From positions 244,862 to 308,861 of the forward strand of contig OY970382.1 of NCBI GenBank assembly GCA_963719425.1: a stretch of 64,000 nt of DNA, read 5' to 3'. Origin of the DNA: an uncultured bacterium (GTDB lineage: Bacteria; Patescibacteriota; Minisyncoccia; UBA6257; 2-01-FULL-56-20). Below are positions 2,422 through 29,266 of the stretch, in pieces. A program made the position numbers and the translations under genes. Each line of letters opens with the position of its first letter. Within the stretch, counting starts at the first letter, position 1. The notes under the pieces were generated by a model. The model was not told the origin of the DNA. It saw only the letters and a list, made by a program, of their open reading frames with translations, and did no database searches.

Positions 2422-3228
2422 ATGGATAACATTATTGAGGTGAAGAATTTGGTGAAGCAGTTCGGCGGTTTTGTGGCAGTGAACCATATTTCCTTTGATG
2501 TCAAAAAAGGGGAGGTTTTCGCCTTTTTGGGGCCGAATGGGGCAGGGAAGTCCACTACGATCAAGATGCTCACCACGCTCCTGCATCCCACGGGCGGCTC
2601 GATCGTGCTCGACGGTCACAGCCCAACGGAGGACCCCGAAGAAGTGCGGCGCTCGTTCGGCATCGTGTTCCAGGACCCGAGTTTGGACGACGAACTTACG
2701 GCGAAAGAAAACATGGAATTCCATGGGATTCTGTATAATGTTCCTGCGGAATTGCGCAAAGAGCGCGTTGAACAACTTATGAAGTTCGTGGAATTGTGGG
2801 ACCGGCGCGACAGCTTGGTCAAGGAATTTTCCGGCGGCATGAAGCGGCGGTTGGAAATCGCGCGCGGGCTTTTGCACCATCCGAAAGTGATATTTTTGGA
2901 CGAGCCGACGCTCGGCCTTGATCCGCAGACGCGCAACCATATGTGGACCTATCTGCAGGACTTGAACAAGAAGGAAGGCGTCACGGTATTTTTCACGACC
3001 CACTACATGGAAGAGGCGGCGCGCATAGCCCAGCGGATCGCGATCATTGATCACGGGGAGATCGTCGCCATAGGAAGCACGCAAGAACTCATGAAGCAGA
3101 CGGGAACTCCTTCGCTTGAAGACGCATTCCTTAAGCTGACTGGCAACGTGATCCGAGAAGAGGAGTCCAACGCGGTTGACCGGTTGCGTTCGCGTGCGCG
3201 CGCATGGGGCAACCGGGGAAGAAGGTAA
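2422..3228 (+). CDS. ABC-2 type transporter ATP-binding protein
   Basis: Walker A GPNGAGKST, signature FSGGMKRRLEIARGL, Walker B IFLDEPTLGLD. Start taken at MDNIIEVKNL (ATG 2422). Confidence 0.9.
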   Translation: MDNIIEVKNLVKQFGGFVAVNHISFDVKKGEVFAFLGPNGAGKSTTIKMLTTLLHPTGGSIVLDGHSPTEDPEEVRRSFGIVFQDPSLDDELTAKENMEFHGILYNVPAELRKERVEQLMKFVELWDRRDSLVKEFSGGMKRRLEIARGLLHHPKVIFLDEPTLGLDPQTRNHMWTYLQDLNKKEGVTVFFTTHYMEEAARIAQRIAIIDHGEIVAIGSTQELMKQTGTPSLEDAFLKLTGNVIREEESNAVDRLRSRARAWGNRGRR

Positions 3229-3246
3229 CAATATAATTCATTCACC

Positions 3247-3993
3247 ATGAAAACCATCTATATAATGTGGCTCCGTGAGTTGAAGCGGTATTTCCGTTCA
3301 AGGTCGCGGATGATCGGTTCGCTTGGCCAGCCGCTTCTCTTTCTGCTTGCGCTCGGTTACGGCCTGGGATCCGTTTTCCAGGCCGCAGGCCAAGGGAATT
3401 ATTTTCAGTTTTTGGTGCCGGGCATTGTCGGCATGAGCATTATTTTTACCGCGATTTTTTCCGGTATCCAGCTCATTTGGGATCGGCAGTTCGGATTTTT
3501 GAAGGAGACGCTTGTCGCGCCGGTATCGCGGCTCAACATCATGATCGGCCGCACGCTCGGCGGCGCGACCGTCGCGACATTCCAGGGAATCATCGTTTTC
3601 TTGATCTCCATGGTGTTCGGTTTCCGTCCGGATAATTGGTGGCTTCTGCCCGTCGCAGTCATCTTTATGCTTCTCGTCGCGCTGCTCTTTACCGCGCTCG
3701 GCACCGGCATCGCTTCGCTCCTTGAAGACATGCAGGGCTTCCAACTCATCATGAACTTCCTTGTCATGCCTTTGTTCTTCCTGTCTGGGGCGCTTTTTCC
3801 GCTCACCGGCTTGCCCGCTATCCTTACTGGCCTCACGACGGTTGACCCGCTCTCGTATGGCATTGATTCCTTCCGCGCGCTCCTTGTGAATACCACGCAT
3901 TTCGGCCTCGGCATTGACTTCGTCGTGCTTGCCGTCATCACCGCCGTGTTCTTGGGTGTCGGGAGCTATCTCTTTTCAAAGATCGAGGTATAA
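3247..3993 (+). CDS. ABC-2 type transporter permease
   Basis: Six predicted TM helices, ABC-2 family length and hydropathy. Immediately downstream of the ATPase. Confidence 0.8.
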   Translation: MKTIYIMWLRELKRYFRSRSRMIGSLGQPLLFLLALGYGLGSVFQAAGQGNYFQFLVPGIVGMSIIFTAIFSGIQLIWDRQFGFLKETLVAPVSRLNIMIGRTLGGATVATFQGIIVFLISMVFGFRPDNWWLLPVAVIFMLLVALLFTALGTGIASLLEDMQGFQLIMNFLVMPLFFLSGALFPLTGLPAILTGLTTVDPLSYGIDSFRALLVNTTHFGLGIDFVVLAVITAVFLGVGSYLFSKIEV

Positions 3994-6055: not shown

Positions 6056-9000
6056 CTACTGCGAGCAGAGCTGATTCAGGACTGATCGGGTCGCGGAACC
6101 TACGTAACCGTTGCCGGAAGTGAGGCCGTTCGGTGCAAGGATCTCATCGGCAAAGATGTTCTGGAAGATGATGACCGCATTCTTCGTGGCGTCGCCGAAG
6201 TAGGTGCTTTCATTGCCCGGCGAGCCCACGCCGCTCTGCGCCACTTGCGTGAGGTCGCTCATGTTCAGGACCGTTTGGAGCATTTTTACGTCGGCGTTGT
6301 TCATCCCTTGAGACAGGTTTTGGTTGAACTGGGCCGAACAAGAAGCGTCTTTCAGCTGCTGGGTGACCAGTTTTTTCTCAAGCGCGATAAGCTGTTGCAT
6401 CAAGCTTTGGAGAAGCTGGAGGAGTACTCCGGGATTCGTCGTTGAAGCGCCCAAGACCTGGCCGCCGCCCGTCGTGATCGTCGGTGGGTAATAGCCAGTA
6501 CCACCGCCCCCACCGCCTCCGCCGCCGGAAGTCACTACTATTCCACCTCCGTTGCCGGTATTACCTCCGGGCTGCGTTGCGCTGCCCGTAGTTGTTACTG
6601 TTATTTCGTTACCTACACTCTCCGGTGAGCCGTGCGAGACAGAGCGAAGATAGTAGGTGGTACCCGGCGTGAGGCCGGAAACCGTCACGCTGTGGTCGGT
6701 CGTCGTTGCTGCGTTCTCGTCCGTAGAGTTCGCGTAACCGTAGTTCGGCTCACCAGCTGCGGTGCTGGAAGCATCAGAAACCGATGCAGTGCCATATACC
6801 ACGCGGCTCGTCGCCGGATGATCGGTGGTCCAGGTGATCGTAACAGAGGTATCCGTCGGGTTGGTGGAGGTTTGTTCGGAAATGATCGGCGCTGGCAGAG
6901 CGAAGGTTTCTGTAAAGGCGCAAGGAATTGAATTGCCCGCAGGGGCCGTCTTGCCCTGACAGTCTCCATTGTTGCCCACCGTATAGTTGGTGAGCGATGA
7001 AATATTCGCGCCGTACGTCATTTTCTCATCCACCGTTACGAGTGTTCCTGAAGCGTTGCCTGGGAAGGTGGATGTGCTCGGGTGGCCTCCAATGATTGTC
7101 ACCGTAAAGTCGGAAGGCGTCGCCGAGCCACCTGCTGAGTTGTCAACTGTCACTGTAACGTTCAGGGTGCTTGTCGGCGTCGGCGGTGGGGGAGGCAGCT
7201 CGCTTATGATAAGCGTGTAGTGCTGCGCTGTTGAGAGCGAGCCATCCGAGACGCTTGTCGCTGTGATATCAAGCGGGAAGGTGCCTGTAGCCGTTGGGGT
7301 TCCGGAGAGAAGGCCGTCCGCAAAGTTCAAGCCAGGGATCGTGCCGCTCGCGTTCCAATTGAAGGTGTCAGAGGCGTTCCCGCTGTTCGTTGCCGTGAAG
7401 GTCTGCGAGTAGCTCGTGTCCGTCTCGGTGCCGGGAAGCGCGCCAGCCGCGGGGCTTATCGTAATGGTAGAGATGGAGGCCGGCGCTTCAACCACTTTGA
7501 TGCTGTAATCGCCGCTTGCGCTCTGCGAATTGTCCGAGTCGCTGGTCGCGTTCACGGAGAAGTTGAAGGTGCCGGTTGCGGTCGGCGTCCCCGAGATGCT
7601 CAGTGAGAAGCCGTCCGAAGAGGTGCTTACGTCCATGCCCGTCGGGATCGCGCCTGCGGTGATTGCGAAGATAAAGGTGTCAGTAGCATTCGCGGAGTTC
7701 GTTGCGTGGATCGTGGCCGGTGCCGGGTAGAGCACGTTCACTGTCGCGTCGTTGAATCCGCCGCTCGGAGGAGTAAGTGTCACCGTGGAGCTTGGCGTTG
7801 ACGTTGGAGCCGCAGCTTCCACCGTCAAGGTGTAGTTCTTGCTCGCCACGTTGCTTTGCACGTTACTGCCATTCACCGAGACGTTGATCGTCGAACTGCC
7901 AACATCACTCGCGTGCGGAGTGCCGCTCACCGTTGTGGTGTCACCGGCGGGCGTCGAGGTCGCCCATGCGGGCAGGCCCGCGATTTGCCAGGTCAAAGTG
8001 TCCGCCGGGTCGGTTGAAGTCGCAACGATGGTCGCGCTGTACGGGGTCTCCGCAGTCGCCGTGTCAGGCGTGAGGCCCGAGACGATCGTGATCGTTGGCG
8101 CGTTGCTTACCGCGAAGTCAAAGTGCTGGGTCGCTGTGCTCGCGCCGTTCGTGTTGTTTGTCGCGGTTACGTCAATCGGGAAGGTTCCGGTTGCGGCCGG
8201 GGTGCCAGTGAGGTTGCCATCGGTGAAGGTCAAGCCAGGGATTGTTCCGCTCGCGTTCCAGTTGAAGGTATCAGAAGCGTCCGCGTCAGAAGCCGTGAAG
8301 TTTCCGCTATAGGAAACGCCTATCGTCGCGTTGAGCGAGGGCGGTGTGATGGTTACTGCCGGCGCCGCAAGAACCGAGATCGAGAAATCCTGGGCCGTCG
8401 GGGCGCTCGCCGGGTTCGCGCCCGTTGCAGTCATATTCACCGTTGAGGAGCCGAGATCGGCTGATTCAGGCGTACCAGAGATGGTCGCTGTGTCGCCATT
8501 CACCGCAAACGATGTAATCCATGCAGGCAGCGGCGTTGAGGTGCTGAGAGTCAGGGTATCTGCTGGATTGGTTGAAGTGGCCGTAATCGTCGCCGTGTAG
8601 GGGATGCCAACTGTCGCATCCGGAAGCGGCGAGGTCGTTATGAAGGAAATGGCTGGAGCATTGCCAACCGTGATTGTGTCGGTCAAGGAGCCCGCGCTTG
8701 CGACATTTAAGGTACTCGTCGCATTCACGTTGAGAACAATTGAATCAGTCGTGGTCGGGGTGCCAGCGATGGTGAGCGTCGTTGGGGTTGAAGTGCTCGT
8801 GAAGCCGTCAGGCAAACCAGCCACACCGAAGGTAAAGGTGTCAGTCGCATTGCTGTCGCTTGCCGTGAAGGTTTGGCTGAAGGACACGCCTACTTCAGCT
8901 ACGTCAGGCGATGAGGTCGCGATCGTGATCGCCGGGGCGTCGCTTACCGTGAGGGGATAGGTTTGCGTTACGGTGGTTGAAGCGTTCGTTTCGTTCGTCG

Positions 9001-12000
9001 CGGTCACCGAGACCGTTGTTGAGGTCGGGGTCGTGGGCGTTCCGGAGATCGTGAGCGTGTTGCCCGTCGGGATGCTCGTTATGCCATCCGGCAAATCGCT
9101 CACTGTCCAGTTGAAGACACCAGTGTCAGTTGAAGAGACTGTGAGGATCGCGCCCGCGTAGGGGACACCCACCGTCGCCGTGTCGGGCACCTCGCCCGTG
9201 ATCGCTACATCCGCGGAGTTCACGGTGATTATATTCGGAGCGTTATTCACAGTGAAGGTCTGTGGAACGTTGGGAGCTGCCTCATGGTTCAAGTCGCTGG
9301 CCTGTTCTGCCGTGATCATGCAGCTGCCTGGGCCCATGAGGTGGACCGTGTTCGCAGAGATTGTACAGACGTCGGACGAGGTTGCGGTGAAGGTTACCGC
9401 GAGGCCCGAGGTTGATGTTGCGCTGATTGAGAAATCGGGATCGCCGATCGTCACATCAGCGAGGGGAGCGAACGCGATCGTCTGGCTCGCCTGTGCGATG
9501 ACGAGCGTGCCGGTAGCCGTACCCGCATAGTTCGGGTCAGTGATCGTGGCAGCTACTGCGTATGTTCCCGCGTCTACAGGAGTGGTCGTCGCATTATCGT
9601 ACGTCACAATATTTGCAAGGTTGTCCGGATTTGTCGTGACGCCAACCGTCTTCGGATTGCCATCATAAACCTGATTGAGATCTGCACTGTTCAGAGCAAT
9701 CGTAATAGACGATGGAGCGATCGCGTCAGCCACCGTGCCGGTCGCGTTGTTGTAGTTGCCGGTCGCGTCCGTGAAGGTCCAGGGATCGGTGGGGTAGCCC
9801 GCCGCGTCCGTGTGCGTCGTGCCCGTGAGATCAAGGCCGCTCAGGGCTTCGTCCAATACCCCTTTCGCGGTCCCGGTCGCGGTGTGGGCCGCGCCGTCAA
9901 ACGGCACTGCGTAGGGCGTGACTATGATGGTCGGGTTGGCTTTGGTGATCGCGATCGCTACCGTGCCGCTCGCATCGTTGTAGTTGGTACCGCCCGTGAA
10001 GGTCCAGGAGGCGGTGCCGCCAGGAACGTTCGTGAAGGAAGCACCGAGATCAAGCGAGGCCGCGAGGTCCGCACCGCCGATACCGGTCGCCGTCCCGGTC
10101 GCGCTGTGCGCCGCGCCATCGTAGACGCCGGTGTAGCCGGTGACATTGATGGTCGCATCCACCTTGCCGATCGCGTCAGCCACCGTGCCGGTCGCGTTGT
10201 TGTAGTTGCCGGTCGCGTCCGTGAAGGTCCAGGGATCAGTGGGGTAGCCCGCCGCGTCCGTGTGCGTCGTGCCCGTGAGATCAAGGCCGCTCAGGGCTTC
10301 GTCCAATACCCCTTTCGCGGTCCCGGTCGCGGTGTGGGCCGCGCCGTCAAACGGCACTGCGTAGGGCGTGACTATGATGGTCGGGTTGGCTTTGGTGATC
10401 GCGATCGCTACCGTGCCGCTCGCATCGTTGTAGTTGGTACCGCCCGTGAAGGTCCAGGAGGCGGTGCCGCCAGGAACGTTCGTGAAGGAAGCACCGAGAT
10501 CAAGCGAGGCCGCGAGGTCCGCACCGCCGATACCGGTCGCCGTCCCGGTCGCGCTGTGCGCCGCGCCATCGTAGACGCCGGTGTAGCCGGTGACATTGAT
10601 GGTCGCATCCACCTTGCCGATCGCGTCAGCCACCGTGCCGGTCGCGTTGTTGTAGTTGCCGGTCGCGTCCGTGAAGGTCCAGGGATCAGTGGGGTAGCCC
10701 GCCGCGTCCGTGTGCGTCGTGCCCGTGAGATCAAGGCCGCTCAGGGCTTCGTCCAATACCCCTTTCGCGGTCCCGGTCGCGGTGTGGGCCGCGCCGTCAA
10801 ACGGCACTGCGTAGGGCGTGACTATGATGGTCGGGTTGGCTTTGGTGATCGCGATCGCTACCGTGCCGCTCGCATCGTTGTAGTTGGTACCGCCCGTGAA
10901 GGTCCAGGAGGCGGTGCCGCCAGGAACGTTCGTGAAGGAAGCACCGAGATCAAGCGAGGCCGCGAGGTCCGCACCGCCGATACCGGTCGCCGTCCCGGTC
11001 GCGCTGTGCGCCGCGCCATCGTAGACGCCGGTGTAGCCGGTGACATTGATGGTCGCATCCACCTTGCCGATCGCGTCAGCCACCGTGCCGGTCGCGTTGT
11101 TGTAGTTGCCGGTCGCGTCCGTGAAGGTCCAGGGATCAGTGGGGTAGCCCGCCGCGTCCGTGTGCGTCGTGCCCGTGAGATCAAGGCCGCTCAGGGCTTC
11201 GTCCAATACCCCTTTCGCGGTCCCGGTCGCGGTGTGGGCCGCGCCGTCAAACGGCACTGCGTAGGGCGTGACTATGATGGTCGGGTTGGCTTTGGTGATC
11301 GCGATCGCTACCGTGCCGCTCGCATCGTTGTAGTTGGTACCGCCCGTGAAGGTCCAGGAGGCGGTGCCGCCAGGAACGTTCGTGAAGGAAGCACCGAGAT
11401 CAAGCGAGGCCGCGAGGTCCGCACCGCCGATACCGGTCGCCGTCCCGGTCGCGCTGTGCGCCGCGCCATCGTAGACGCCGGTGTAGCCGGTGACATTGAT
11501 GGTCGCATCCACCTTGCCGATCGCGTCAGCCACCGTGCCGGTCGCGTTGTTGTAGTTGCCGGTCGCGTCCGTGAAGGTCCAGGGATCAGTGGGGTAGCCC
11601 GCCGCGTCCGTGTGCGTCGTGCCCGTGAGATCAAGGCCGCTCAGGGCTTCGTCCAATACCCCTTTCGCGGTCCCGGTCGCGGTGTGGGCCGCGCCGTCAA
11701 ACGGCACTGCGTAGGGCGTGACTATGATGGTCGGGTTGGCTTTGGTGATCGCGATCGCTACCGTGCCGCTCGCATCGTTGTAGTTGGTACCGCCCGTGAA
11801 GGTCCAGGAGGCGGTGCCGCCAGGAACGTTCGTGAAGGAAGCACCGAGATCAAGCGAGGCCGCGAGGTCCGCACCGCCGATACCGGTCGCCGTCCCGGTC
11901 GCGCTGTGCGCCGCGCCATCGTAGACGCCGGTGTAGCCGGTGACATTGATGGTCGCATCCACCTTGCCGATCGCGTCAGCCACCGTGCCGGTCGCGTTGT

Positions 12001-15000
12001 TGTAGTTGCCGGTCGCGTCCGTGAAGGTCCAGGGATCAGTGGGGTAGCCCGCCGCGTCCGTGTGCGTCGTGCCCGTGAGATCAAGGCCGCTCAGGGCTTC
12101 GTCCAATACCCCTTTCGCGGTCCCGGTCGCGGTGTGGGCCGCGCCGTCAAACGGCACTGCGTAGGGCGTGACTATGATGGTCGGGTTGGCTTTGGTGATC
12201 GCGATCGCTACCGTGCCGCTCGCATCGTTGTAGTTGGTACCGCCCGTGAAGGTCCAGGAGGCGGTGCCGCCAGGAACGTTCGTGAAGGAAGCACCGAGAT
12301 CAAGCGAGGCCGCGAGGTCCGCACCGCCGATACCGGTCGCCGTCCCGGTCGCGCTGTGCGCCGCGCCATCGTAGACGCCGGTGTAGCCGGTGACATTGAT
12401 GGTCGCATCCACCTTGCCGATCGCGTCAGCCACCGTGCCGGTCGCGTTGTTGTAGTTGCCGGTCGCGTCCGTGAAGGTCCAGGGATCAGTGGGGTAGCCC
12501 GCCGCGTCCGTGTGCGTCGTGCCCGTGAGATCAAGGCCGCTCAGGGCTTCGTCCAATACCCCTTTCGCGGTCCCGGTCGCGGTGTGGGCCGCGCCGTCAA
12601 ACGGCACTGCGTAGGGCGTGACTATGATGGTCGGGTTGGCTTTGGTGATCGCGATCGCTACCGTGCCGCTCGCATCGTTGTAGTTGGTACCGCCCGTGAA
12701 GGTCCAGGAGGCGGTGCCGCCAGGAACGTTCGTGAAGGAAGCACCGAGATCAAGCGAGGCCGCGAGGTCCGCACCGCCGATACCGGTCGCCGTCCCGGTC
12801 GCGCTGTGCGCCGCGCCATCGTAGACGCCGGTGTAGCCGGTGACATTGATGGTCGCATCCACCTTGCCGATCGCGTCAGCCACCGTGCCGGTCGCGTTGT
12901 TGTAGTTGCCGGTCGCGTCCGTGAAGGTCCAGGGATCAGTGGGGTAGCCCGCCGCGTCCGTGTGCGTCGTGCCCGTGAGATCAAGGCCGCTCAGGGCTTC
13001 GTCCAATACCCCTTTCGCGGTCCCGGTCGCGGTGTGGGCCGCGCCGTCAAACGGCACTGCGTAGGGCGTGACTATGATGGTCGGGTTGGCTTTGGTGATC
13101 GCTGCAGTCGTTGTCGCTGTGTCGTTGAAGTTGTAGTTCGCCGCACTCGTTCCATTCAATATAATTCCCGTTACCGTGACGAGCTTCGCCGTGCCAGCAT
13201 TCGCGTCGGCAAATAATGCCGTGCCGCTTGCGGTCAGAAGGTCACCGTTCACGACGCCGTTCACCGTGAGATTGGCGGTCGCGTTCGTCGTGCCGTCGTA
13301 GACCTTATCGTGGCCGGTGGCCGAGACCGTGACCGAGGCCGCCGTGATGTTCAGTGTGCTTGTAACAAACGTCAGCGTGTAGTTGCCATTCAGGGCGAGA
13401 GTGCCCTGTTTGATAGCGTAAGCGCCGACGTTCTCGCCCGCATCGCGGATCAAGGCACCCGAAAAGGTATCACTTGCGATGAGTGTGCCGCTTGTGATCT
13501 GATAGGTCAAAGCCGGATCAACGGCGCCATATACCTTGGTCTTTGCGTCTGCTGTCACCGTAATCGCTCGCGGGATTACATTTACGGTGCGGACCACCGG
13601 AGTGGCGGCGTTGCCATGCGCGTCACTGACGTTATAGGTCACCGTGTACGCACCGAGCTGATTAATATTAACAGTACTCGTCGTAACGATGTGCGTGGTA
13701 AGGTCGCCGTCTATGTTATCAAGTGCGGTAGCGCCCGCGTCTACATAGGGAGTTCCCACTTCAGTGTTCACGGTGCTTGAGCCGATGAGTGTGATGACCG
13801 GCGGAGTGGTGTCATTTATATTTATGTATTGCGCCATCACGTCATGGATGGTGTCCACGCCGATCTGGCCGTTTCCCGTTCCCTTTTTGCCATTCAGATA
13901 GTCCACGGTGTCTTGGAGCACGGCCTGCGTCGTGCCATCCACTTCGGTGGCAAGCGGAGCAGTAGAGGTCTCTATCTGGTGGAAAAGTAGAATGAGCCAA
14001 ACCTTGTTCGCTGCTGCGTAATCAATCCATGAGTGTATCGTGTTCGTCGCAACCGATGCGTCAACAACTTGAACTTGGAGCGCATACGGATCGGTGTTTT
14101 TCAAGTTGTAACCCTGGATGACGCTGCGTCCGGCGGCGAAGTTATCAGCACTCAAAAGCCCTTCTATACTAGTGTTTCCCGCGCCTGAGCCGTAAGGATA
14201 CGCAAATGTGTCAACGGGCGTCACGCCTATGTCAGTGAGGGCGGTCTTGGATCCGTCTATCTGATCTTGGGCCGTTGACGGCGCTGGAAGCGGGTTATCG
14301 GGGCAGCCGACCGTTGTCATTGCCGAGTTGGGGTCATTGAAGAGCTGAACAAGGTCGCAGTGGTCTTCTGTGTGCGAACCGATTTCTTCTCCGTATGTGT
14401 TCTGGAGCGAGAGTACGCTTGAGGTGCTCATAAAGCTTAAATCTGGATCGTCAGGGCTGTTGAGCATCGCGTTGGTGATGATATAGAACGTTCCATGAAG
14501 ATGGGCGGCGTACAGCACCGGCACCGCATTGTCGAATTGCGATTGCCAACCATCGTCAAAAGTGAGCGAGACCAGTCCTTGGGGGAAAAGGTACGCACCC
14601 GGCTCTGCCACCAGGGTAAGCGAATAATTAGTAGTTGCGAGCGATCCATTGCCGCTGATGAAGTGATAGACCGTGACCGAAACAGCGTTCGGGGGCGCAG
14701 TAAACTGCTGCGTGGCGCTCGTCCATACACCGCCCGTCGAAGGAAGTGTGGCAAGGATGGGATATGTATTGGAGTTATCAGCGAGGGTGTATTCCGCAGC
14801 CAGGTAGCTCGTGTTTGTTGAGTTGTACCAGTCGGAGAACGAGTAGGTTGCGCCGCCTGTTATCGCCACGTGGTCAAAATACCAATCTGCGGCGCCATCC
14901 ACGTAGTTAGAGACGGAAACCTCGGCGGCTTTGTCTCCCGGATTCGGTCCGGCGAGCAGCGGGTAGCTGAATATTCTTGTGTTGTTGCCGTAACCGCCCT

Positions 15001-17881
15001 GATGCCAATAATCGGGATTGCTGGCTGATACCGTCGCGTCCAGCATGTTCGGATTCTGGATAAGGTTCGCTACTGCTGCGCTCACCGTGATGGTGTAGCC
15101 CTGCGTTGAGGATGTCAAACCGACAGTTGCTTTTATGGTGAAGTTGAATACTCCGGTCACACTTGGGGTTCCGGCGATGGAGGTTGTGGGGCCCGTGGCA
15201 GAAGTGAGCGAAAGCCCGTTAGGCAATGCGCCGGAAGTGAGTGTCCACGAAATCGTCCCCGTCGCCGCGGTTGTTGCCGTAAGCGTTTGCGCGTAGGGAG
15301 CGTCGATTGTGCCGTTCGCAAGCTCGGTCGGGCTGATGCCGAGCGGAGGCGGGACGAAAGTGTTCGTTATCGTACACGTGACCGTGCTCGTGCCCATCGT
15401 GCCCGTGCACGAAGCGGAGGGTGACACCGTGTAATATTGGGAGTTCGTGGTCGTTGCTTCAGCCACGCGGTATGTGTCGCCGACATTCAGCGTATAACTC
15501 TGCGTGCTTGAAGCAGAGCCGTTGAATACTGTTGTTGAGCCGTTCTTCAAAACGGTCAGGATGAAATCCCCATAGGTTGCGGAACCACTCGTACTGTTCA
15601 CGAGATTTACAACAAGCGTTGCGGAACTTATTTTAGTGGAGGTCAGCGAGCCCGATCCGGTGTTTCCAGCCGCATCCGTTTGCGATACGGTCGCGGTCAG
15701 GGTTCCGTCGGGAAGCGTGCTCAAATTAAGAACTTTTGACCACGCGCTTGAAGCGCAGGTTGAGGTGGCGTTCACACTGCTTGAAGCGTTCGTCACTGCA
15801 AGTGAAACCGTAAGGCCAGTTTCGCAGGCGCCCGAAAGGGTTACGGCGGTATTATTCGCGTTCGTGACCGCCGGGAATGAAGTGACCGTAACGCTCGGGG
15901 CGGTGTTATCCACCGTAAAAGTCGTGCTTGGTCCGGCAGCTGGAGCAGTGTTGCCCGCGTTGTCGCTTGCCGTTCCTGCCGCGATGCTGATGCCGAGCGT
16001 GCCGTCCCCAGTGATCGATGAGATCGTGACCGTTCTCGTGCTGGTCCCCGAGCCGGTCACCGCTACGGTGCCGGTGGTCGTTCCCGTCTTATTCAAAGCC
16101 ACATTGGCGTTCACAAGGGTAACGGTATCTGCGCCGCCATAGGTGATGGTGTAGGTGATCGGTCCGCTCTTTGTGAGTGACGCAGAGGGTGAGCCGATGG
16201 TAACGGTCGGCGCCGTGTTGTCGATTTGAATTTGTCGGTTCGCCGAAATTTGTGAATTGCCGACGGCATCCGCCACAGTGACCGTAAGCTGTTTGGCGCC
16301 GTCCGCGCCACCATTCGTGATCGTAAGGATGCCCGTGCATTTCTGCGTGGTAGTGCTGTAGGTGATCGATCCGGTAAACGATGTTACCCCGCTTATCGCT
16401 GGATTACAGCTTGTGCCATTTGTTATTCCCGAACCGGTTTCGGTGATTGAAACATCCACCGAGGTTGTCGCATTGTTTTTATAGCGTGAGTCCGTCGCAG
16501 GGGAGTTGAAGGAGTATGACGGAGCAGTCGTGTCGGGAGTTACTGCCACTGCAGTGCCGGTGCCGGTATTTCCCGCGTTGTCCGTTCCGCGGACGTTGAT
16601 TGAGGTCGCTGCGGCAGTGTTTACTCCGCTTGCACTACAGCTGCCGGCCGAAAATGTCCCCGCCGTCCACGTAGTGCCACCATTTATAGTGTATTGGCAG
16701 GAAGCAACGCCGCTTCCGGAGTCGCTCACCGTTGCGGAGATGGTTGAGGTTCCCGAGATATATTTCGGAGAAGAGCCGCTCGTCGGGGTTATTGTGACTG
16801 TTCCAATGGTCGGGGCGGCGGTGTCAATCTTCGCGACATTCGTAGACGTGTAGGTCGCCGTGTTGCCAGCGTTATCTGAGATAAGATATTGATATTCGTA
16901 ACAATTGCTGTTCGCAACAGTGGTGTCGTTATAGGGGCTCGTGGAGGTTGTTACGAGATTCGCGAAAGAGCCGAATGTTCCGCAGGAACCGTTGCTCAAT
17001 GTCGCCGAAGCCCGCTGGATTTTCCCCGAAGCCGTGTTTATGCCGGAACCACTATCGGTCCCAAGCGTAAAGGTGACGGAAACCGAAGTCGTCGTGGCGT
17101 AACCGTTGAGGTATGAGATGGAACCGCCGGAAGGAGGCGTTGTATCTGGGCGCAATGCAATGAGCTGTGCTTCCCAGGCGTCATTAGCTGCTCCGCTTGC
17201 AGTCTTTGCGCCGCTTGCACCTGTCGCGGACTGGACAGCGTCAGCTGTCTCTTCGTTTGGTCCGCTTGACTGAGTCTGGTCAAAACGCTCCGTCATACCG
17301 GTTGGGGGCGTCATCGATCCACTGCTATCGCTTGCAAAAGCCGCAACAAGCAAATCGTTTGCGACGGTAGTCGTAACATTTGAGGCAGATGGCGAAGCTG
17401 AAGTCCCTGTATTACCGCTCGAAGTATCAACTGGATTTGAAGTGTCAACGCCCGTATAGCGGAGAATGCCACCACCTGCTCGGTTCCCATGCGATCCATA
17501 GTTAAGGGTCCACGCGAAAGTAGATCCCTCTGAGCCGGTTACCACATGATAATAAGTAGCCAACGCATTATTAGTTCCATTGTTCGTCCTTAGTATCAGA
17601 GTCCAGCCGGACGGTGGTGTAATTGTGTCGTCGCTCCCACCATGGGCAGCAATGGTGGCGATGAGGATGTCGCCAGCTGCAGTGGATGCTGGCTTTGAAA
17701 TCGTGAGCGTGGTATTTGTGGTTGTCGCGTTCGCTTCCGTCCCGAAACTGATTGCTGCAAAGGCTTGTGGCACAACAAGTAGCATCCCGAGCGCCACCGC
17801 CGAACTGATTTTTATTAAATTTGTTTTTTGGAAAATGTTTTTCACTGATCTTTTATTTTTTATTTTTGTTTCTATTTTCAT
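6056..17881 (-). CDS. giant secreted cell-surface protein (3,941 aa)
   Basis: Signal peptide (KISSAVALGMLLVVPQAFAA). NodB motifs LVSLTFDDGW ... SHTEDH. DUF5011-like Ig domain (TPPVITLIGSSTVN...YNVSDAHGNAA). About 16 MBG/YDG domains (KVYDGTTNA...; YTGVYDGAAHSATG). Repeated He_PIG-like modules (LPDGIT ... ISGTPT). An FN3-like domain (TSVTITWTT ... GTTYYLRSV). A Gly9 run. C-terminal PG_binding_1-like domain (YFGDATKNAVIIFQ). Confidence 0.85.
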   Translation of the reverse strand: MKIETKIKNKRSVKNIFQKTNLIKISSAVALGMLLVVPQAFAAISFGTEANATTTNTTLTISKPASTAAGDILIATIAAHGGSDDTITPPSGWTLILRTNNGTNNALATYYHVVTGSEGSTFAWTLNYGSHGNRAGGGILRYTGVDTSNPVDTSSGNTGTSASPSASNVTTTVANDLLVAAFASDSSGSMTPPTGMTERFDQTQSSGPNEETADAVQSATGASGAKTASGAANDAWEAQLIALRPDTTPPSGGSISYLNGYATTTSVSVTFTLGTDSGSGINTASGKIQRASATLSNGSCGTFGSFANLVTTSTSPYNDTTVANSNCYEYQYLISDNAGNTATYTSTNVAKIDTAAPTIGTVTITPTSGSSPKYISGTSTISATVSDSGSGVASCQYTINGGTTWTAGTFSAGSCSASGVNTAAATSINVRGTDNAGNTGTGTAVAVTPDTTAPSYSFNSPATDSRYKNNATTSVDVSITETGSGITNGTSCNPAISGVTSFTGSITYSTTTQKCTGILTITNGGADGAKQLTVTVADAVGNSQISANRQIQIDNTAPTVTIGSPSASLTKSGPITYTITYGGADTVTLVNANVALNKTGTTTGTVAVTGSGTSTRTVTISSITGDGTLGISIAAGTASDNAGNTAPAAGPSTTFTVDNTAPSVTVTSFPAVTNANNTAVTLSGACETGLTVSLAVTNASSSVNATSTCASSAWSKVLNLSTLPDGTLTATVSQTDAAGNTGSGSLTSTKISSATLVVNLVNSTSGSATYGDFILTVLKNGSTTVFNGSASSTQSYTLNVGDTYRVAEATTTNSQYYTVSPSASCTGTMGTSTVTCTITNTFVPPPLGISPTELANGTIDAPYAQTLTATTAATGTISWTLTSGALPNGLSLTSATGPTTSIAGTPSVTGVFNFTIKATVGLTSSTQGYTITVSAAVANLIQNPNMLDATVSASNPDYWHQGGYGNNTRIFSYPLLAGPNPGDKAAEVSVSNYVDGAADWYFDHVAITGGATYSFSDWYNSTNTSYLAAEYTLADNSNTYPILATLPSTGGVWTSATQQFTAPPNAVSVTVYHFISGNGSLATTNYSLTLVAEPGAYLFPQGLVSLTFDDGWQSQFDNAVPVLYAAHLHGTFYIITNAMLNSPDDPDLSFMSTSSVLSLQNTYGEEIGSHTEDHCDLVQLFNDPNSAMTTVGCPDNPLPAPSTAQDQIDGSKTALTDIGVTPVDTFAYPYGSGAGNTSIEGLLSADNFAAGRSVIQGYNLKNTDPYALQVQVVDASVATNTIHSWIDYAAANKVWLILLFHQIETSTAPLATEVDGTTQAVLQDTVDYLNGKKGTGNGQIGVDTIHDVMAQYININDTTPPVITLIGSSTVNTEVGTPYVDAGATALDNIDGDLTTHIVTTSTVNINQLGAYTVTYNVSDAHGNAATPVVRTVNVIPRAITVTADAKTKVYGAVDPALTYQITSGTLIASDTFSGALIRDAGENVGAYAIKQGTLALNGNYTLTFVTSTLNITAASVTVSATGHDKVYDGTTNATANLTVNGVVNGDLLTASGTALFADANAGTAKLVTVTGIILNGTSAANYNFNDTATTTAAITKANPTIIVTPYAVPFDGAAHTATGTAKGVLDEALSGLDLTGTTHTDAAGYPTDPWTFTDATGNYNNATGTVADAIGKVDATINVTGYTGVYDGAAHSATGTATGIGGADLAASLDLGASFTNVPGGTASWTFTGGTNYNDASGTVAIAITKANPTIIVTPYAVPFDGAAHTATGTAKGVLDEALSGLDLTGTTHTDAAGYPTDPWTFTDATGNYNNATGTVADAIGKVDATINVTGYTGVYDGAAHSATGTATGIGGADLAASLDLGASFTNVPGGTASWTFTGGTNYNDASGTVAIAITKANPTIIVTPYAVPFDGAAHTATGTAKGVLDEALSGLDLTGTTHTDAAGYPTDPWTFTDATGNYNNATGTVADAIGKVDATINVTGYTGVYDGAAHSATGTATGIGGADLAASLDLGASFTNVPGGTASWTFTGGTNYNDASGTVAIAITKANPTIIVTPYAVPFDGAAHTATGTAKGVLDEALSGLDLTGTTHTDAAGYPTDPWTFTDATGNYNNATGTVADAIGKVDATINVTGYTGVYDGAAHSATGTATGIGGADLAASLDLGASFTNVPGGTASWTFTGGTNYNDASGTVAIAITKANPTIIVTPYAVPFDGAAHTATGTAKGVLDEALSGLDLTGTTHTDAAGYPTDPWTFTDATGNYNNATGTVADAIGKVDATINVTGYTGVYDGAAHSATGTATGIGGADLAASLDLGASFTNVPGGTASWTFTGGTNYNDASGTVAIAITKANPTIIVTPYAVPFDGAAHTATGTAKGVLDEALSGLDLTGTTHTDAAGYPTDPWTFTDATGNYNNATGTVADAIGKVDATINVTGYTGVYDGAAHSATGTATGIGGADLAASLDLGASFTNVPGGTASWTFTGGTNYNDASGTVAIAITKANPTIIVTPYAVPFDGAAHTATGTAKGVLDEALSGLDLTGTTHTDAAGYPTDPWTFTDATGNYNNATGTVADAIGKVDATINVTGYTGVYDGAAHSATGTATGIGGADLAASLDLGASFTNVPGGTASWTFTGGTNYNDASGTVAIAITKANPTIIVTPYAVPFDGAAHTATGTAKGVLDEALSGLDLTGTTHTDAAGYPTDPWTFTDATGNYNNATGTVADAIAPSSITIALNSADLNQVYDGNPKTVGVTTNPDNLANIVTYDNATTTPVDAGTYAVAATITDPNYAGTATGTLVIAQASQTIAFAPLADVTIGDPDFSISATSTSGLAVTFTATSSDVCTISANTVHLMGPGSCMITAEQASDLNHEAAPNVPQTFTVNNAPNIITVNSADVAITGEVPDTATVGVPYAGAILTVSSTDTGVFNWTVSDLPDGITSIPTGNTLTISGTPTTPTSTTVSVTATNETNASTTVTQTYPLTVSDAPAITIATSSPDVAEVGVSFSQTFTASDSNATDTFTFGVAGLPDGFTSTSTPTTLTIAGTPTTTDSIVLNVNATSTLNVASAGSLTDTITVGNAPAISFITTSPLPDATVGIPYTATITATSTNPADTLTLSTSTPLPAWITSFAVNGDTATISGTPESADLGSSTVNMTATGANPASAPTAQDFSISVLAAPAVTITPPSLNATIGVSYSGNFTASDADASDTFNWNASGTIPGLTFTDGNLTGTPAATGTFPIDVTATNNTNGASTATQHFDFAVSNAPTITIVSGLTPDTATAETPYSATIVATSTDPADTLTWQIAGLPAWATSTPAGDTTTVSGTPHASDVGSSTINVSVNGSNVQSNVASKNYTLTVEAAAPTSTPSSTVTLTPPSGGFNDATVNVLYPAPATIHATNSANATDTFIFAITAGAIPTGMDVSTSSDGFSLSISGTPTATGTFNFSVNATSDSDNSQSASGDYSIKVVEAPASISTITISPAAGALPGTETDTSYSQTFTATNSGNASDTFNWNASGTIPGLNFADGLLSGTPTATGTFPLDITATSVSDGSLSTAQHYTLIISELPPPPPTPTSTLNVTVTVDNSAGGSATPSDFTVTIIGGHPSTSTFPGNASGTLVTVDEKMTYGANISSLTNYTVGNNGDCQGKTAPAGNSIPCAFTETFALPAPIISEQTSTNPTDTSVTITWTTDHPATSRVVYGTASVSDASSTAAGEPNYGYANSTDENAATTTDHSVTVSGLTPGTTYYLRSVSHGSPESVGNEITVTTTGSATQPGGNTGNGGGIVVTSGGGGGGGGGTGYYPPTITTGGGQVLGASTTNPGVLLQLLQSLMQQLIALEKKLVTQQLKDASCSAQFNQNLSQGMNNADVKMLQTVLNMSDLTQVAQSGVGSPGNESTYFGDATKNAVIIFQNIFADEILAPNGLTSGNGYVGSATRSVLNQLCSQ
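9790..13101 (-). repeat. about 7.4 nucleotide-identical tandem copies of a 450-bp unit (150 aa, two MBG/YDG domains) inside the giant gene
   Basis: Identical sequence lines recur every 450 bp. Identical shadow ORFs fall at 9958, 10408, ..., 12658. Only the edge copies differ (e.g. cggt vs cagt at 9788 vs 10238). Confidence 0.9.
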
Positions 17882-18172
17882 TTTTATTTTTTGATTTTAG
17901 ATTTGATGTGATGTTATTCCCGACCCTTTCTTTTTGACTGCACCTGGAACATAAGAGGATTCGGCGGAGGAGATATGCACATGCCTCCTCTATGGACGCC
18001 GAAAAGCTCCCACAGAGGAGAGTTCCTGTATTGGCCACTTTCTGTGCCCTGGAAGGCCCGTAAATCCACACTCTTCATGGTTAATGATGGCCGTTTTAAT
18101 GCTCCTTTAATTTGCGGGGAGAATAGCATATTACAAGAAGGCGTGTCAAGGGCACTAAAACAGGAGCGAATG

Positions 18173-18202
18173 AAAAACCTCACTCGCACGAATGAGGTTT
18201 TT
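18173..18202. terminator. bidirectional intrinsic terminator (AAAAACCTCA-ctcgcacgaa-TGAGGTTTTT)
   Basis: A-tract/T-tract flanked hairpin 17 bp downstream of the GT2 gene stop. Separates the glycan operon from the giant gene promoter region. Confidence 0.45.
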
Positions 18203-18218
18203 CATTGCGGTGGGTAAT

Positions 18219-19610
18219 TTAAACCGCTCTCCTCGTCGGGCTAATCCACTGTCCGGAAGATTTGGTCAACAACGCCTTAGGCATCGCTCCCAGAAATGCC
18301 AGCGCGTCAAAAAAACGCACCAAAGGAAACGCGAGGCCTAACAATAAATATTGCGGTCTTCTTCGGGCTGCGATTAAGGTCATTAAATAATCGGGCAGCA
18401 AGACCGCGAACAGGACAATTCCGAGCAAAACCTTGGAAACTGCCGGGAAAGCAAAAAGAATCGAAAGACCTGCTGAGTGCTGTATTGTGATTTGGCCGGA
18501 AAAAATTATAAAGAGCAAAGCAAACGGCAGCAGTAAAAATGCTAAGCTAGCCAAAAATGTTTCCAGCAAAGTTATGCAAAGTGCGGCCCAGAATTTGCTT
18601 GGCCAAAAACCGTGCAAACGGATAGTTTGCCAAAATCCCAAATACCACCTTTTTACCTGACGGTAATAATCGCGCAAATTATCAGGATCCTGGGTATGAG
18701 CGATTATGCTGGGGTGGTGGGCTATGATCCCGAGGTGTTTATGGTGCAATTCAAACGTCATATTAAAATCTTCTATCACGGGCCCTTGCGGGTTCATATT
18801 CATTTTTTCCAGGACGGATGTCCGGTAAATACTGGCAAAGCCCGGCACTATGGGCGTAACGTTGGTATGCCGCCATGTCTGGCCGAATTTAATGAGGATC
18901 TGGCTTAGAAAATAGACCCGGTCTCTATGCGCCAGAAAAAGCATCTGCCGCCACGACTGCTTTTTTGGGTCCCATATTGTCCGCGCGTAACCGGCCACGG
19001 CAGCGACTTCTGGGTCGCGGAAAAAAGGCAGCGCGTTTTCCAGATAATCATTTTTGAGGCGCGTATCCGCATCCACAAACAATACGGCTTTGTAGGCATG
19101 ATATAAATTAAAATGCCTTAAACATTCTTCCAACGCGCCGGCTTTGCCGTGAGAGGCCTCCAGGTTCAGCACCTGAACATTAAAACTTTGGGCAATGGTT
19201 ACGGTTGAGTCTGTCGAGCCGTCCGAGACGACGAACAAATTTTTTGCGGGTACAATTTTTAAAAGCGCGTTCAAGGTGTCAGCAATGACCAGTTCCTCGT
19301 TGTGCGCCGGCACCAAGACCGCCACCTCGTCATGCGTAATACTTGGAGGTTCGTCCATCCCATCTTGTTTAGTCGGGGCTTTTTGAAAAAAAGTTTCGAA
19401 AATCAGCCTCGTGAGACCAATAGTGCCCCAAACAAAAAAATTTATTCCCCACGTAAGCACTATACCCAGCAGTAGCCACCAGATGTGCGCCCCCCTGCAA
19501 AAAAAAGAGCCGACTTGGCTTAAAACCGGCAATAAAACAGCCCCAAATCCAAACGGCCAACCTGAAATATGGTAATAGTATGAGATATGGGAAATAAAAG
19601 AATTAAACAT
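18219..19610 (-). CDS. integral-membrane family-2 glycosyltransferase (synthase-type, TM helices at both ends)
   Basis: GT2 motifs VLVPAHNEELVIADTL, VSDGSTDST, DADTRL and a QxxRW-like region (RQVKRWYLGFWQ), with N- and C-terminal TM bundles like HAS/Cps3S/PgaC-type synthases. Confidence 0.8.
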   Translation of the reverse strand: MFNSFISHISYYYHISGWPFGFGAVLLPVLSQVGSFFCRGAHIWWLLLGIVLTWGINFFVWGTIGLTRLIFETFFQKAPTKQDGMDEPPSITHDEVAVLVPAHNEELVIADTLNALLKIVPAKNLFVVSDGSTDSTVTIAQSFNVQVLNLEASHGKAGALEECLRHFNLYHAYKAVLFVDADTRLKNDYLENALPFFRDPEVAAVAGYARTIWDPKKQSWRQMLFLAHRDRVYFLSQILIKFGQTWRHTNVTPIVPGFASIYRTSVLEKMNMNPQGPVIEDFNMTFELHHKHLGIIAHHPSIIAHTQDPDNLRDYYRQVKRWYLGFWQTIRLHGFWPSKFWAALCITLLETFLASLAFLLLPFALLFIIFSGQITIQHSAGLSILFAFPAVSKVLLGIVLFAVLLPDYLMTLIAARRRPQYLLLGLAFPLVRFFDALAFLGAMPKALLTKSSGQWISPTRRAV

Positions 19611-20619
19611 TTTGTTCCGCTACTTCTTGCCCCGCCATAAAACCAGGCTTGGCTGAGGTCTTACCCATTTCGACAATGCGGTATTTAAACGCCTCCAAGG
19701 TCTGCTTGAGGCCATGCTTTAAGTCGATCTTGCTTTTCCAGCCCAAAGCTTGGATTTTTTGTAGGTCCGGCAAACGGCCCGAGTGGTCGTGGGCGGCTCT
19801 GGGAATGATAGTGATCTTGCTGGAAGAATTAGCCAAGCCAACTATTAAAACAACCAAGTCTTTTATTTTAATCGGTTGGTTGCTGCCTAGATTGTATACC
19901 TGTCCTGGCACGCCCTTTTCCATGATAATTTCAAACCCATCTAATATATCTTCCACGTAGCATAAGGTTCTGCTCTGCTCCCCGTCTCCATATAGGGTGA
20001 TGGGAAGATTGTTTAAAGCTTGCCATCCGAAGCGGGGCACCACGCGCATATCGGAAAAAGACATCCTCGGGCCATAGGCATTGAACAGTCTGACGATTTT
20101 AGCGTTAAGCCCATAGCGGCGCACGAACCAAGCCACCAAAGTTTCGGAAAAACGCTTGCCTTCTTCATAGTTGGCGCGCGGCCCGGTTGGGTCGACATTT
20201 CCTTCATAGCTTTCCTTTTGTGGAGAGACTAAGGCCTCTCCGTAAATTTCCGAACTGCTGGTAAAAAGCAATTCCGAGCCATGGTCAAGCGCCAGTCTTA
20301 ACACCTGCCAAGTGCCGGTGCTTGATGCCTGCAGCATTTCTTCGCCCAAAACTTGGATGTTCGGCACGCCTGTGGGACAGGCCAGATTGTAAATGCGCTG
20401 GAACTTAACCTTAGCGGCGGAGCAGAAGCCCAAAAATTGCGGGGTTTCTATGCCGCATTGGCCAAAAGAAAAATTAGGATATTTTTTCAAAAACTCAATG
20501 TTTTGCAGATCACCGGTGAGCAGGTTATCAACACCCCAGACGGTATGCCCCGCCCGAAGCAAGCGCTCGCATAAGCTTGAGCCCAAAAACCCTGCTGCCC
20601 CCGTAACGAGAATATCCAT
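19603..20619 (-). CDS. NAD-dependent epimerase/dehydratase, UDP-glucuronate decarboxylase (UXS)-like
   Basis: Rossmann GAAGFLGS and SDR-extended family features. Adjacent to a UDP-sugar dehydrogenase. Confidence 0.75.
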   Translation of the reverse strand: MDILVTGAAGFLGSSLCERLLRAGHTVWGVDNLLTGDLQNIEFLKKYPNFSFGQCGIETPQFLGFCSAAKVKFQRIYNLACPTGVPNIQVLGEEMLQASSTGTWQVLRLALDHGSELLFTSSSEIYGEALVSPQKESYEGNVDPTGPRANYEEGKRFSETLVAWFVRRYGLNAKIVRLFNAYGPRMSFSDMRVVPRFGWQALNNLPITLYGDGEQSRTLCYVEDILDGFEIIMEKGVPGQVYNLGSNQPIKIKDLVVLIVGLANSSSKITIIPRAAHDHSGRLPDLQKIQALGWKSKIDLKHGLKQTLEAFKYRIVEMGKTSAKPGFMAGQEVAEQNV

Positions 20620-20620
20620 G

Positions 20621-21916: not shown

Positions 21917-22048
21917 CGTTCGTTAAGGCTTTATTAAATCCCGCTACTTATACTCCATTACGAATGATTTGTAAAGGGGAGGAATGTATGCTCTTAGTGA
22001 TGCGGCGCATAGCTCGAATGCTATGCGCCGTTGTCCTCTTGCTCTGCC

Positions 22049-26268: not shown

Positions 26269-26320
26269 ATATTGGTACGGTAGAGGATACTTTATGTTAC
26301 ATAAAAGGTCAAGCACTCTT

Positions 26321-29259: not shown

Positions 29260-29266
29260 CGAGGCC

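Follow-up and report, generated by a model that had tools for sequence, protein, structure and literature searches.

The window analysed here, a 64,000-nucleotide stretch of contig OY970382.1 from an uncultured Minisyncoccia bacterium (Patescibacteriota), carries on its reverse strand a single open reading frame (ORF; 6056..17881) that starts with ATG and runs without interruption for 3,941 codons. Its predicted product places a NodB-type polysaccharide deacetylase of carbohydrate esterase family 4 (CE4) between a non-repeat N-terminal region and a very long run of tandem beta modules, and the gene lies next to that of a family 2 glycosyltransferase (GT2). Patescibacteria account for a large share of bacterial diversity, but the construction of their surface and their attachment to partners are little understood.

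The giant ORF had originally been predicted from the sequence alone, and it holds: the frame is open throughout, and codons 1-1602 are confirmed by a second assembly. A Logan contig, assembled separately from short reads of the same sample (ERR10755942), is 100% identical to positions 13074-27457 of the window and ends 28 nt inside the tandem array of the gene. This identity is an independent confirmation of codons 1-1602, the enzyme included, and of the upstream genes. Since the repeat units are identical and short reads are unable to span them, the copy number of the repeat is given by the long contig only. Exact-sequence look-up of the 3,941-amino-acid (aa) protein in the gene catalogue returned no match, and neither did exact look-ups of four downstream or nearby genes, probably because of differing start-codon calls; no independent contig was retrieved for the 3' half of the ORF.

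The protein is rich in Thr (18%), Ala (13%) and Gly (11%), its Cys residues are paired, and a transmembrane scan locates its sole hydrophobic segment at aa 20-48. Pfam searches with the entire protein and with ten of its segments, together with the translation, showed the domain list of the original prediction to be largely right; a carbohydrate-binding module (CBM) had been missed, and the layout of the He_PIG modules and the MBG/YDG labels had to be amended. The signal-peptide-like N terminus, the repeats and the Pfam matches agree with the prediction of a very long, modular protein that is secreted to the surface and has tandem beta modules as its stalk.

The CBM-CE4 cassette and its synthase neighbour

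Pfam identifies Polysacc_deac_1 (PF01522) at aa 1101-1234 with 53.4 bits against a cut-off of 23.1, and the TFDDG and H-T-x-x-H motifs on which the NodB assignment had been based are present. Conservation of the motifs was judged on a 60-sequence and a trimmed 10-sequence alignment of homologues. Motif 1 reads LTFDDGW (D1108, D1109), with F, D and G nearly invariant in the alignments, and motif 2 reads H1170-T-E-D-H1174, with both His residues invariant; W1285 is conserved, and motif 5 (LxH), WLILLFH1301, is invariant in both alignments. Motif 3, FAYPYG (1226-1231), is without the Arg of RxPY, and a family-invariant R1252 stands 21 residues downstream. In PplD, PgaB and IcaB, the motif-3 Arg is missing and an Arg elsewhere in the sequence is used instead (PMC8807736). 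The order of the motifs is canonical (TFDD ... HTxxH ... AYPYG ... LFH). The catalytic Asp, the metal-binding Asp, His and His and the catalytic His, whose conservation had been proposed as a check of the deacetylase assignment, are thus all intact, and a pseudo-enzyme is rejected on this basis. The CE4 domain is apparently a competent enzyme, as judged from its residues.

Directly N-terminal of the NodB domain lies a jelly-roll of the CBM_4_9 type, which is the module absent from the original list. The segment aa 951-1361 was modelled with AlphaFold from the alignment of homologues (pLDDT 91.7, pTM 0.87), and the model displays a jelly-roll followed by a beta/alpha barrel. The jelly-roll matches CBM16, CBM22 and CBM4 structures in Foldseek (E 1e-7 to 1e-8); strands and helices alternate in aa 1100-1350, for which Foldseek returns the CE4 structures 2w3z and 6h8l. 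PdaC and a Streptococcus mutans CE4 are also matched by the CBM-CE4 model. The top match of the whole model is the turret head protein of HFTV1 (8qpg_TA; E 2.9e-17, TM-score 0.56), above all bacterial CE4 structures, and 8qpg is the only solved structure with the same arrangement of CBM and deacetylase. A string resembling a sortase signal, LPSTG at aa 1046, was rejected as such, being located within the CBM and not at the C terminus.

A search with aa 951-1361 recovered 522 homologues, almost all of 400-720 aa and carrying PF01522, often with PF02018; the named ones belong to Patescibacteria (Saccharimonadia, Taylorbacteria) and Chloroflexota, and the standalone CBM-CE4 homologues have signal peptides. 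Straight after motif 2, 18 residues are inserted that include a Cys pair (1175/1193), and one of the standalone homologues, P0013, shares this insertion. Among PDB sequences, a profile search placed PplD (6dq3) first (E 1.7e-31), followed by BC0361, BA0330 and BA0331 (4hd5, 4v33, 6go1) and then by BpsB/PgaB, whereas a single-sequence phmmer search of the PDB with the CBM-CE4 region gave nothing at E ≤ 0.01. The best NCBIfam matches of the CE4 domain are HfsH and IcaB; the IcaB model scores 30.3 bits against a cut-off of 248, below the equivalog level.

The GT2 gene is directly upstream of the giant gene on the same strand, at a distance of 337 bp. The encoded synthase displays the DxD motif VDADT, the ED motif and the QxxRW motif QVKRW, and it matches the NCBIfam PgaC_IcaA model over its full length (E 5.9e-23) with 81.5 bits, short of the equivalog cut-off of 422. 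Upstream of it, the 431-aa dehydrogenase (UDP-ManNAc dehydrogenase/TviB-like) scores 408 bits with TIGR03026, and the epimerase/dehydratase and the 6-dehydrogenase exhibit sub-threshold similarity to the UDP-ManNAc dehydrogenase, TviB and TviC models of NCBIfam. An Rfam scan of the whole window detected no RNA family, and hence no riboswitch in the 337-bp leader.

The association of the two genes recurs. In each of the four metagenome contigs examined (4/4), a GT2 homologue (E 1e-32 to 1e-43) is no more than a few genes away from the CBM-CE4 gene. A scan of GTDB genomes with the trimmed 10-sequence alignment yielded 80 loci, 48 of them from Patescibacteria, 24 from other phyla and eight of unassigned taxonomy. 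A GT2 homologue is found in the flank of 27 of the 48 patescibacterial loci, being on the same strand and directly upstream in 18 and directly downstream in four; the corresponding figures for the 24 non-patescibacterial loci are four in the flank and two directly upstream on the same strand, downstream cases not being counted. The pair of GT2 and CBM-CE4 genes thus appears, from gene neighbourhoods, to be widespread in Patescibacteria. A literature search found no description of a GT2/CE4 system or of a giant deacetylase-bearing protein in this group, and a preprint on giant genes of Omnitrophota does not mention deacetylases.

Head, stalk and C-terminal end

The coordinates of all features are collected in Table 1.

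Table 1. Features of the giant ORF and of the genes upstream of it (positions in the window; residues of the 3,941-aa protein)
Feature	Residues	Position	Strand	Evidence and remarks
Putative signal peptide	1-42	17756..17881	-	Translation: K/R-rich n-region, hydrophobic core, AFA↓A cleavage-type motif
N-terminal head domain, candidate ligand-binding tip	~43-245	17147..17755	-	All-beta, internally duplicated; without Pfam family
Two-Cys immunoglobulin (Ig)-like array	~246-755	15617..17146	-	Weak Pfam Big_13 and Big_3_2; Cys pairs 300/327, 395/415, 492/515, 686/709
Beta module with Cys825/Cys836	~756-845	15347..15616	-	Translation, Cys positions; resembles aa 3573-3662 in sequence
He_PIG Ig-like domain	846-934	15080..15346	-	Pfam E 3.2e-8; opens the He_PIG-CBM-CE4 cassette
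CBM4/9/16/22-type jelly-roll	~958-1092	14606..15010	-	PF02018 CBM_4_9 in homologues; AF2 pLDDT 91.7; Foldseek
NodB/CE4 polysaccharide deacetylase domain	~1095-1345	13847..14599	-	PF01522 Polysacc_deac_1; motifs
Bact_surface_Ig-like (formerly DUF5011)	1363-1435	13577..13795	-	Pfam E 5.7e-18
MBG_2 and YDG	1440-1510 and 1515-1589	13100..13576	-	Pfam E 4e-21 and 1.5e-16
Tandem array, 15 MBG-like modules of ~75 aa	1595-2721	9719..13099	-	7 x 450 bp and a half unit
MBG_3	2733-2799	9485..9685	-	Pfam E 2.1e-23
Two-Cys Ig-like module	~2800-2880	9242..9484	-	Translation; Cys 2839/2854; same type closes the stalk of P0333
Seven He_PIG Ig-like modules with short Pro/Thr/Ser/Ala linkers	~2881-3560	7202..9241	-	Pfam, 3 + 4 stretches, E 1e-11 and 1e-13
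FN3-like domain	3671-3755	6617..6871	-	Pfam Pur_ac_phosph_N E 1.2e-9; fn3 weak
Gly9 run, presumed flexible hinge	3786-3794	6500..6526	-	Translation
Gln/Leu-rich helical segment	3819-3844	6350..6427	-	Translation
Divergent PG_binding_1 domain	3848-3941	6059..6340	-	Sub-threshold Pfam; homologues; Cys3848/Cys3939
Terminator-like hairpin (18187-18166), then promoter-like TTGACA-18-TATTCT (18149-18120)		18120..18187	-	Consensus matches only
GT2 synthase, membrane-embedded, processive, 463 aa		18219..19610	-	Pfam Glycos_transf_2, Glyco_trans_2_3; NCBIfam; motifs; ~5 transmembrane segments
NAD-dependent sugar epimerase/dehydratase, 338 aa, and nucleotide-sugar 6-dehydrogenase, 431 aa		19603..21916	-	Pfam, NCBIfam

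Structure prediction of the N-terminal head yielded a very confident all-beta model with an internal duplication, for which Foldseek found no significant match in the PDB. For aa 43-245, 113 homologues are known from Actinomycetota, Chloroflexota, Planctomycetota and other groups, and the segment is a candidate for a new adhesive head domain. The weak Big_13 and Big_3_2 matches, located in aa 245-750, and the Cys pairs agree with the two-Cys Ig-like modules predicted behind it; the module at aa ~756-845 has no Pfam match.

Beyond the enzyme, the DUF5011-like Ig domain of the original prediction is recognised by Pfam, and the main repeat follows. Tandem Repeats Finder reported a period of 450 bp, 7.5 copies and a 99% match; the seven full units do not differ at a single DNA position, and each encodes two modules of ~75 aa with a (Y/F)DG...NYN signature. 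About 16 MBG/YDG domains had been claimed. Of the beta-grasp families tested (PF18676, PF18657, PF18887), the Pfam threshold is reached by three modules only, at aa 1440-1510, 1515-1589 and 2733-2799, while the 15 array modules, like the homologous stretches in other proteins, have no Pfam match even at E ≤ 1 and are linked to these families below threshold only. A profile built from ~1,100 array-type segments matches, outside the array, only YDG (iE 0.004) and MBG_3 (iE 0.001), both weakly, and MBG_2, YDG and MBG_3 co-occur with the repeat in proteins of the array family; on sequence grounds, the name MBG-like is plausible for these modules. The array-module family is very large (2,114 cluster representatives at E ≤ 1e-3) and is detected by no Pfam model; its proteins reach 5,107 aa, and as many as 24 stretches are matched in them. 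The GC content at third codon positions (GC3) reaches 0.83 in the array, far above the remainder of the gene (0.59-0.69) and the adjacent sugar genes (0.50-0.56), which fits a recent amplification, perhaps of an imported module.

Several apparent features of the array were discarded. An antisense ORF of 1,134 aa (9812-13216, forward strand) and seven evenly spaced ORFs of 108 aa arise from the GC-rich, stop-free sequence of the repeat and do not represent genes, and a Pfam match to Imm-NTF2-2 is a repeat artefact with no significant stretch.

The predicted count of eight He_PIG modules is right, but they do not form one run: seven are contiguous, the Pfam stretches spanning aa 2880-3580, and one lies upstream of the enzyme. 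The FN3 domain of the original prediction is present as an FN3-like domain by its Pur_ac_phosph_N match, and the Gly9 run and the Gln/Leu-rich segment are plain in the translation.

The C-terminal PG_binding_1-like anchor stands as regards family membership, which is indicated by the ten close homologues of the last 138 aa (60-71% identity), six of which carry PF01471. The domain's own match (aa 3862-3908, 19.8 bits, E 9e-4) is below the cut-off of 23, and binding to peptidoglycan is predicted. It also aligns (E 0.011) with the PG_binding_1 domain of a neighbouring 728-aa protein. A sequence scan of the C terminus found neither a transmembrane segment nor a sortase motif, and this domain is the only candidate wall anchor that can be predicted. 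The 728-aa protein (24130-26316, reverse strand) carries an N-terminal PG_binding_1 domain at aa 64-118 and He_PIG-like sequence resembling the cassette protein of a sister genome; the sugar-gene neighbourhood thus encodes a second surface protein of the wall-associated type. In a GT2 and CBM-CE4 locus of Saccharibacteria (L020, 6652-6906), a domain 55% identical to aa 3855-3939 of the giant protein is encoded just upstream of the GT2 gene.

Elsewhere in the window, positions 51652-54891 (reverse strand) encode a full-length, 1,079-aa large subunit of carbamoyl-phosphate synthase (CarB) in a genome of ~0.89 Mb; Patescibacteria often lack such biosynthetic genes. This CarB shares a cluster of at least 90% identity with a Minisyncoccia metagenome-assembled genome (MAG) and with the 898,885-bp chromosome OY970175.1, so that the organism, whose contig measures 887,956 bp, is a Patescibacterium with a small genome. 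Five tandem paralogues of 570-605 aa (31501-40425, forward strand), 33-47% identical to one another, have an N-terminal CxxC...CPxC zinc-ribbon-like motif; of the two scanned, neither has a Pfam family. The row of five is flanked on each side by a VirD4/TraG-type coupling-protein-like ATPase (29216-30745 and 40469-42430), and these two ATPases are paralogues of 43% identity.

Probable substrate of the deacetylase and rival explanations

The favoured explanation, to which about an even chance is given, is a wall-tethered fibre whose CE4 domain deacetylates the cell's own synthase-made polysaccharide. The protein would be a Sec-secreted fibrillar surface protein of this Minisyncoccia bacterium, held non-covalently on its own peptidoglycan by the PG_binding_1 tail. 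Its stalk would comprise ~30 beta modules (18 MBG-type, seven He_PIG, FN3 and others), with an inferred length of the order of 100 nm, and the distal third would consist of the He_PIG-CBM-CE4 cassette, the Ig-like array and an N-terminal double jelly-roll head. An N-acetylated polysaccharide extruded by the upstream PgaC/IcaA-like GT2 would be the most likely substrate, and the polymer may include N-acetyl-hexosaminuronic acid from the adjacent dehydrogenase and epimerase. The CBM jelly-roll would grip the glycan chain, and the CE4 domain, a predicted metal-dependent de-N- or de-O-acetylase, would use an Asp-His-His metal triad, a catalytic Asp with the distal Arg (as PplD, PgaB and IcaB) and a catalytic His. 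Partial deacetylation may render the polymer cationic and adhesive, as in poly-N-acetylglucosamine (PNAG) or holdfast. The enzyme, and perhaps the polymer as well, would be retained by the fibre in the outer layer of the cell surface, while the head binds a partner surface, and polymer and head together would bring about attachment.

The cell's own polymer is suggested as the substrate because the GT2 gene lies directly upstream and its adjacency to CBM-CE4 genes is conserved (27/48 and 4/4 loci); a host or partner cell wall, the target originally proposed, is therefore not the best supported one. In addition, the nearest characterised relatives (PplD, BpsB/PgaB, HfsH and IcaB) act on envelope glycans of the producer itself. 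The origin of the fusion is indicated by two relatives. P0333, an 825-aa protein of the repeat family, has a signal peptide, the head of the giant protein, six stalk modules of the same kind and the closing Ig module of aa 2800-2880, and is without the enzyme; by its predicted domains, it is a minimal head-plus-stalk adhesin. In the sister genome, He_PIG-CBM-CE4 is a standalone 969-aa protein, L006 (MFD03726.bin.c.4), 58% identical and encoded elsewhere in the chromosome. Taken together, these suggest that an exopolysaccharide-deacetylase cassette was fused into a fibrillar adhesin. The most economical account of the sequences would be that a head-stalk-anchor adhesin acquired a deacetylase cassette that normally works with a PgaC/IcaA-like synthase in this phylum.

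Several observations weigh against this explanation. The terminator-like hairpin and promoter-like site in the gap mean that co-transcription of the GT2 and giant genes is not implied by their adjacency, and no GT2 homologue lies within 10 kb of L006, the cassette protein of the closest relative. With the C terminus as the anchor, ~2,600 residues would separate the enzyme from the wall, and it would be far from the site where the polymer would leave the membrane. The PgaC/IcaA, HfsH and IcaB matches are so far below the equivalog cut-offs that the identity of the polymer is not given by them, and the canonical motif order of the CE4 domain is not the circular permutation of the PplD/BC0361 type. 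Furthermore, we know of no demonstrated activity for BA0330 and BA0331, the nearest structural relatives.

The main rival, in line with the original reading, is a fibre serving as an attack or attachment device whose distal CBM, CE4 and head bind and deacetylate a glycan of another cell (peptidoglycan, capsule or S-layer), with the effect of creating binding sites or weakening the surface at the contact zone; it is regarded as possible but rather doubtful. Patescibacteria are commonly episymbionts, a lifestyle which the 0.89-Mb genome fits, and the enzyme is in the distal third of a fibre anchored, as supposed, by its C terminus. The halves of the adjacent head resemble phage receptor-binding heads and fibre tips, the giant gene appears from the consensus match to have its own promoter, and the best whole-model match, 8qpg_TA, combines a CBM with a deacetylase-like domain for which host glycans are proposed as the target (PMC12494034). 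However, that match is of 15% identity and may merely reflect a common pairing of CBM and CE4; the characterised sequence relatives act on self glycans, and an adjacency to a processive GT2 conserved across Patescibacteria is unexpected for a host-directed enzyme. A more elaborate form, in which the ~100 nm wall-tethered fibre of an episymbiont remodels host glycan at the point of contact through a hitherto undescribed double jelly-roll receptor-binding head and an active CBM-CE4, as a cellular analogue of the HFTV1 turret with its reach set by recently amplified, foreign-looking (GC3 0.83), identical stalk units, is considered unlikely. Action on the cell's own peptidoglycan or on the linkage unit of a wall polysaccharide (PgdA-, PdaC- or PplD-like), which would confer lysozyme resistance or control wall-bound polymers with the fibre unrelated to the function of the enzyme, is improbable: PplD, the top profile match in the PDB, is a linkage-unit de-N-acetylase of wall polysaccharide, PdaC and the S. 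mutans CE4 are among the Foldseek matches and a peptidoglycan-binding domain is present, but ~2,600 stalk residues separate the enzyme from the latter, modules of the CBM4/9/16/22 type typically go with soluble or extended glycan chains and not with the sacculus, and the GT2 synteny speaks against it.

A non-catalytic role has been suggested for some NodB-fold lipoproteins, and the CE4 domain might accordingly serve without turnover as a lectin-like, glycan-binding adhesive module of the fibre. BC0361, BA0330 and BA0331, for which we know of no deacetylase activity, are close relatives in the profile search, and the insertion with its Cys pair after motif 2 would suit such a role; the insertion is, however, common to the standalone P0013, all catalytic and metal-binding residues are conserved and the sequence shows no decay, so that this explanation carries little probability. 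It is also unlikely that the assembly is at fault, either in the unit count of 7.5 and the length of 3,941 aa or through a misjoining of the two halves of the ORF across the repeat. The lack of any DNA difference among seven units, the break of the same-sample short-read contig within the array and the absence of the exact product from the gene catalogue and of a 3' contig are as expected of an artefact. Against this, the frame is held through 3.4 kb of repeat and a further 3.7 kb, what comes behind the array, namely MBG_3 and the closing Ig module of P0333, is a logical continuation of the architecture, the window is part of an 888-kb contig, which implies long reads, and identical tandem units are common in surface adhesins.

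If confirmed, the pair of GT2 and a secreted CBM-CE4 protein would constitute a minimal synthase-dependent exopolysaccharide system and a candidate for the adhesive matrix of Patescibacteria. The giant protein would likewise, if confirmed, demonstrate that fibrillar adhesins can take up a deacetylase cassette, a clear case of domain shuffling between matrix-modifying enzymes and surface fibres. The conserved gene pair is probably a more useful lead than the giant fusion itself. Neither of them overturns current ideas, all parts being of known kinds with predicted functions.

Comparison with known systems

No CE4 domain was detected in the 150 best proteins of the repeat family and no array module in the 120 CE4 homologues listed, and a combination of CE4, MBG-like stalk and PG_binding_1 tail was not found among the ~270 nearest relatives. 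The individual parts are all of known kinds, and the full combination, namely head, Ig array, He_PIG-CBM-CE4, MBG-like stalk, He_PIG array, FN3 and PG_binding_1, turned up in none of the nearest relatives, whether of the repeat family or of the CE4 domain.

The nearest counterparts of the cassette are standalone CBM_4_9-CE4 proteins (P0013, 686 aa; L006, 969 aa) with 45-58% identity. P0013 shares the Cys-pair insertion and L006 the He_PIG domain ahead of the CBM, and in many genomes such proteins have the same GT2 neighbour. They are, however, of 400-1,000 aa and stop after CE4, while the giant protein adds ~2,600 residues after and ~850 before it. An enzyme in a long surface scaffold, which had been held to be unusual, recurs in Patescibacteria: proteins of 2,004-2,153 aa with the order GSDH-PKD-Big_7(xN)-CBM-CE4 are encoded in MAGs of Lloydbacteria, Minisyncoccia and Saccharibacteria (L027, 4790-11116; L030, 5099-11110; L044, 4664-11122). 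Like the giant protein, these are large and secreted, have CBM-CE4 fused to long Ig-like arrays and are encoded directly downstream of a GT2 homologue; unlike it, they have CE4 at the C terminus and a beta-propeller of the glucose/sorbosone dehydrogenase type (GSDH) at the N terminus, and are without the MBG/He_PIG stalk and the PG_binding_1 tail.

As in the PNAG-type systems PgaC-PgaB, IcaA-IcaB and BpsB and with the holdfast deacetylase HfsH, CE4 is encoded here beside a membrane-embedded processive GT2 with QxxRW, and a distal Arg may stand in for the missing motif-3 Arg, as in CE4 of the PgaB/IcaB type. The scores are nevertheless far below the equivalog cut-offs (81 vs 422 bits; 60 vs 400 bits). 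The motif order of the giant protein is canonical and not circularly permuted as in the PgaB/IcaB type, the alignment of BC0361 having LxH ahead of TFDD. Neither the glycoside-hydrolase-like C-terminal domain of PgaB nor the PgaA/PgaD or IcaC/IcaD partners are present, and, unlike PNAG deacetylases, the CE4 domain is embedded in a 3,941-aa fibre with a CBM ahead of it.

The arrangement of CBM and deacetylase has a parallel in HFTV1, the turret head protein of which comprises a CBM and a deacetylase-like domain and is proposed to bind and modify host glycans (PMC12494034). In this protein, gp31 (8qpg), as in the cassette, a jelly-roll CBM at the N terminus precedes a Zn-type deacetylase-like barrel. 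It differs in being a 412-aa capsid decoration of an archaeal virus, trimeric on the capsid and 15% identical, with host glycans as the proposed target.

As a whole, the protein most resembles the fibrillar adhesins of the Gram-positive type, which consist of a head, a repeat stalk and a C-terminal wall anchor (Monzon et al. 2021, PMC8286594). In these the N-terminal head and C-terminal anchor are the classical layout, so that C-terminal anchoring is not the unusual feature it had been taken for. The giant protein shares with them a signal peptide, a non-repeat N-terminal head, a stalk of near-identical tandem modules and a candidate anchor at the C terminus, and the stalk by which fibrillar adhesins are recognised is there, with 15 repeat modules, MBG_2, YDG, MBG_3 and seven He_PIG modules behind a signal-peptide-like N terminus. 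It departs from them in that its candidate anchor, PG_binding_1, is non-covalent where theirs is the LPxTG motif of sortase substrates, in that its head belongs to no known adhesive family, and in the esterase cassette, apparently active by its conserved residues, that is inserted between head and stalk.

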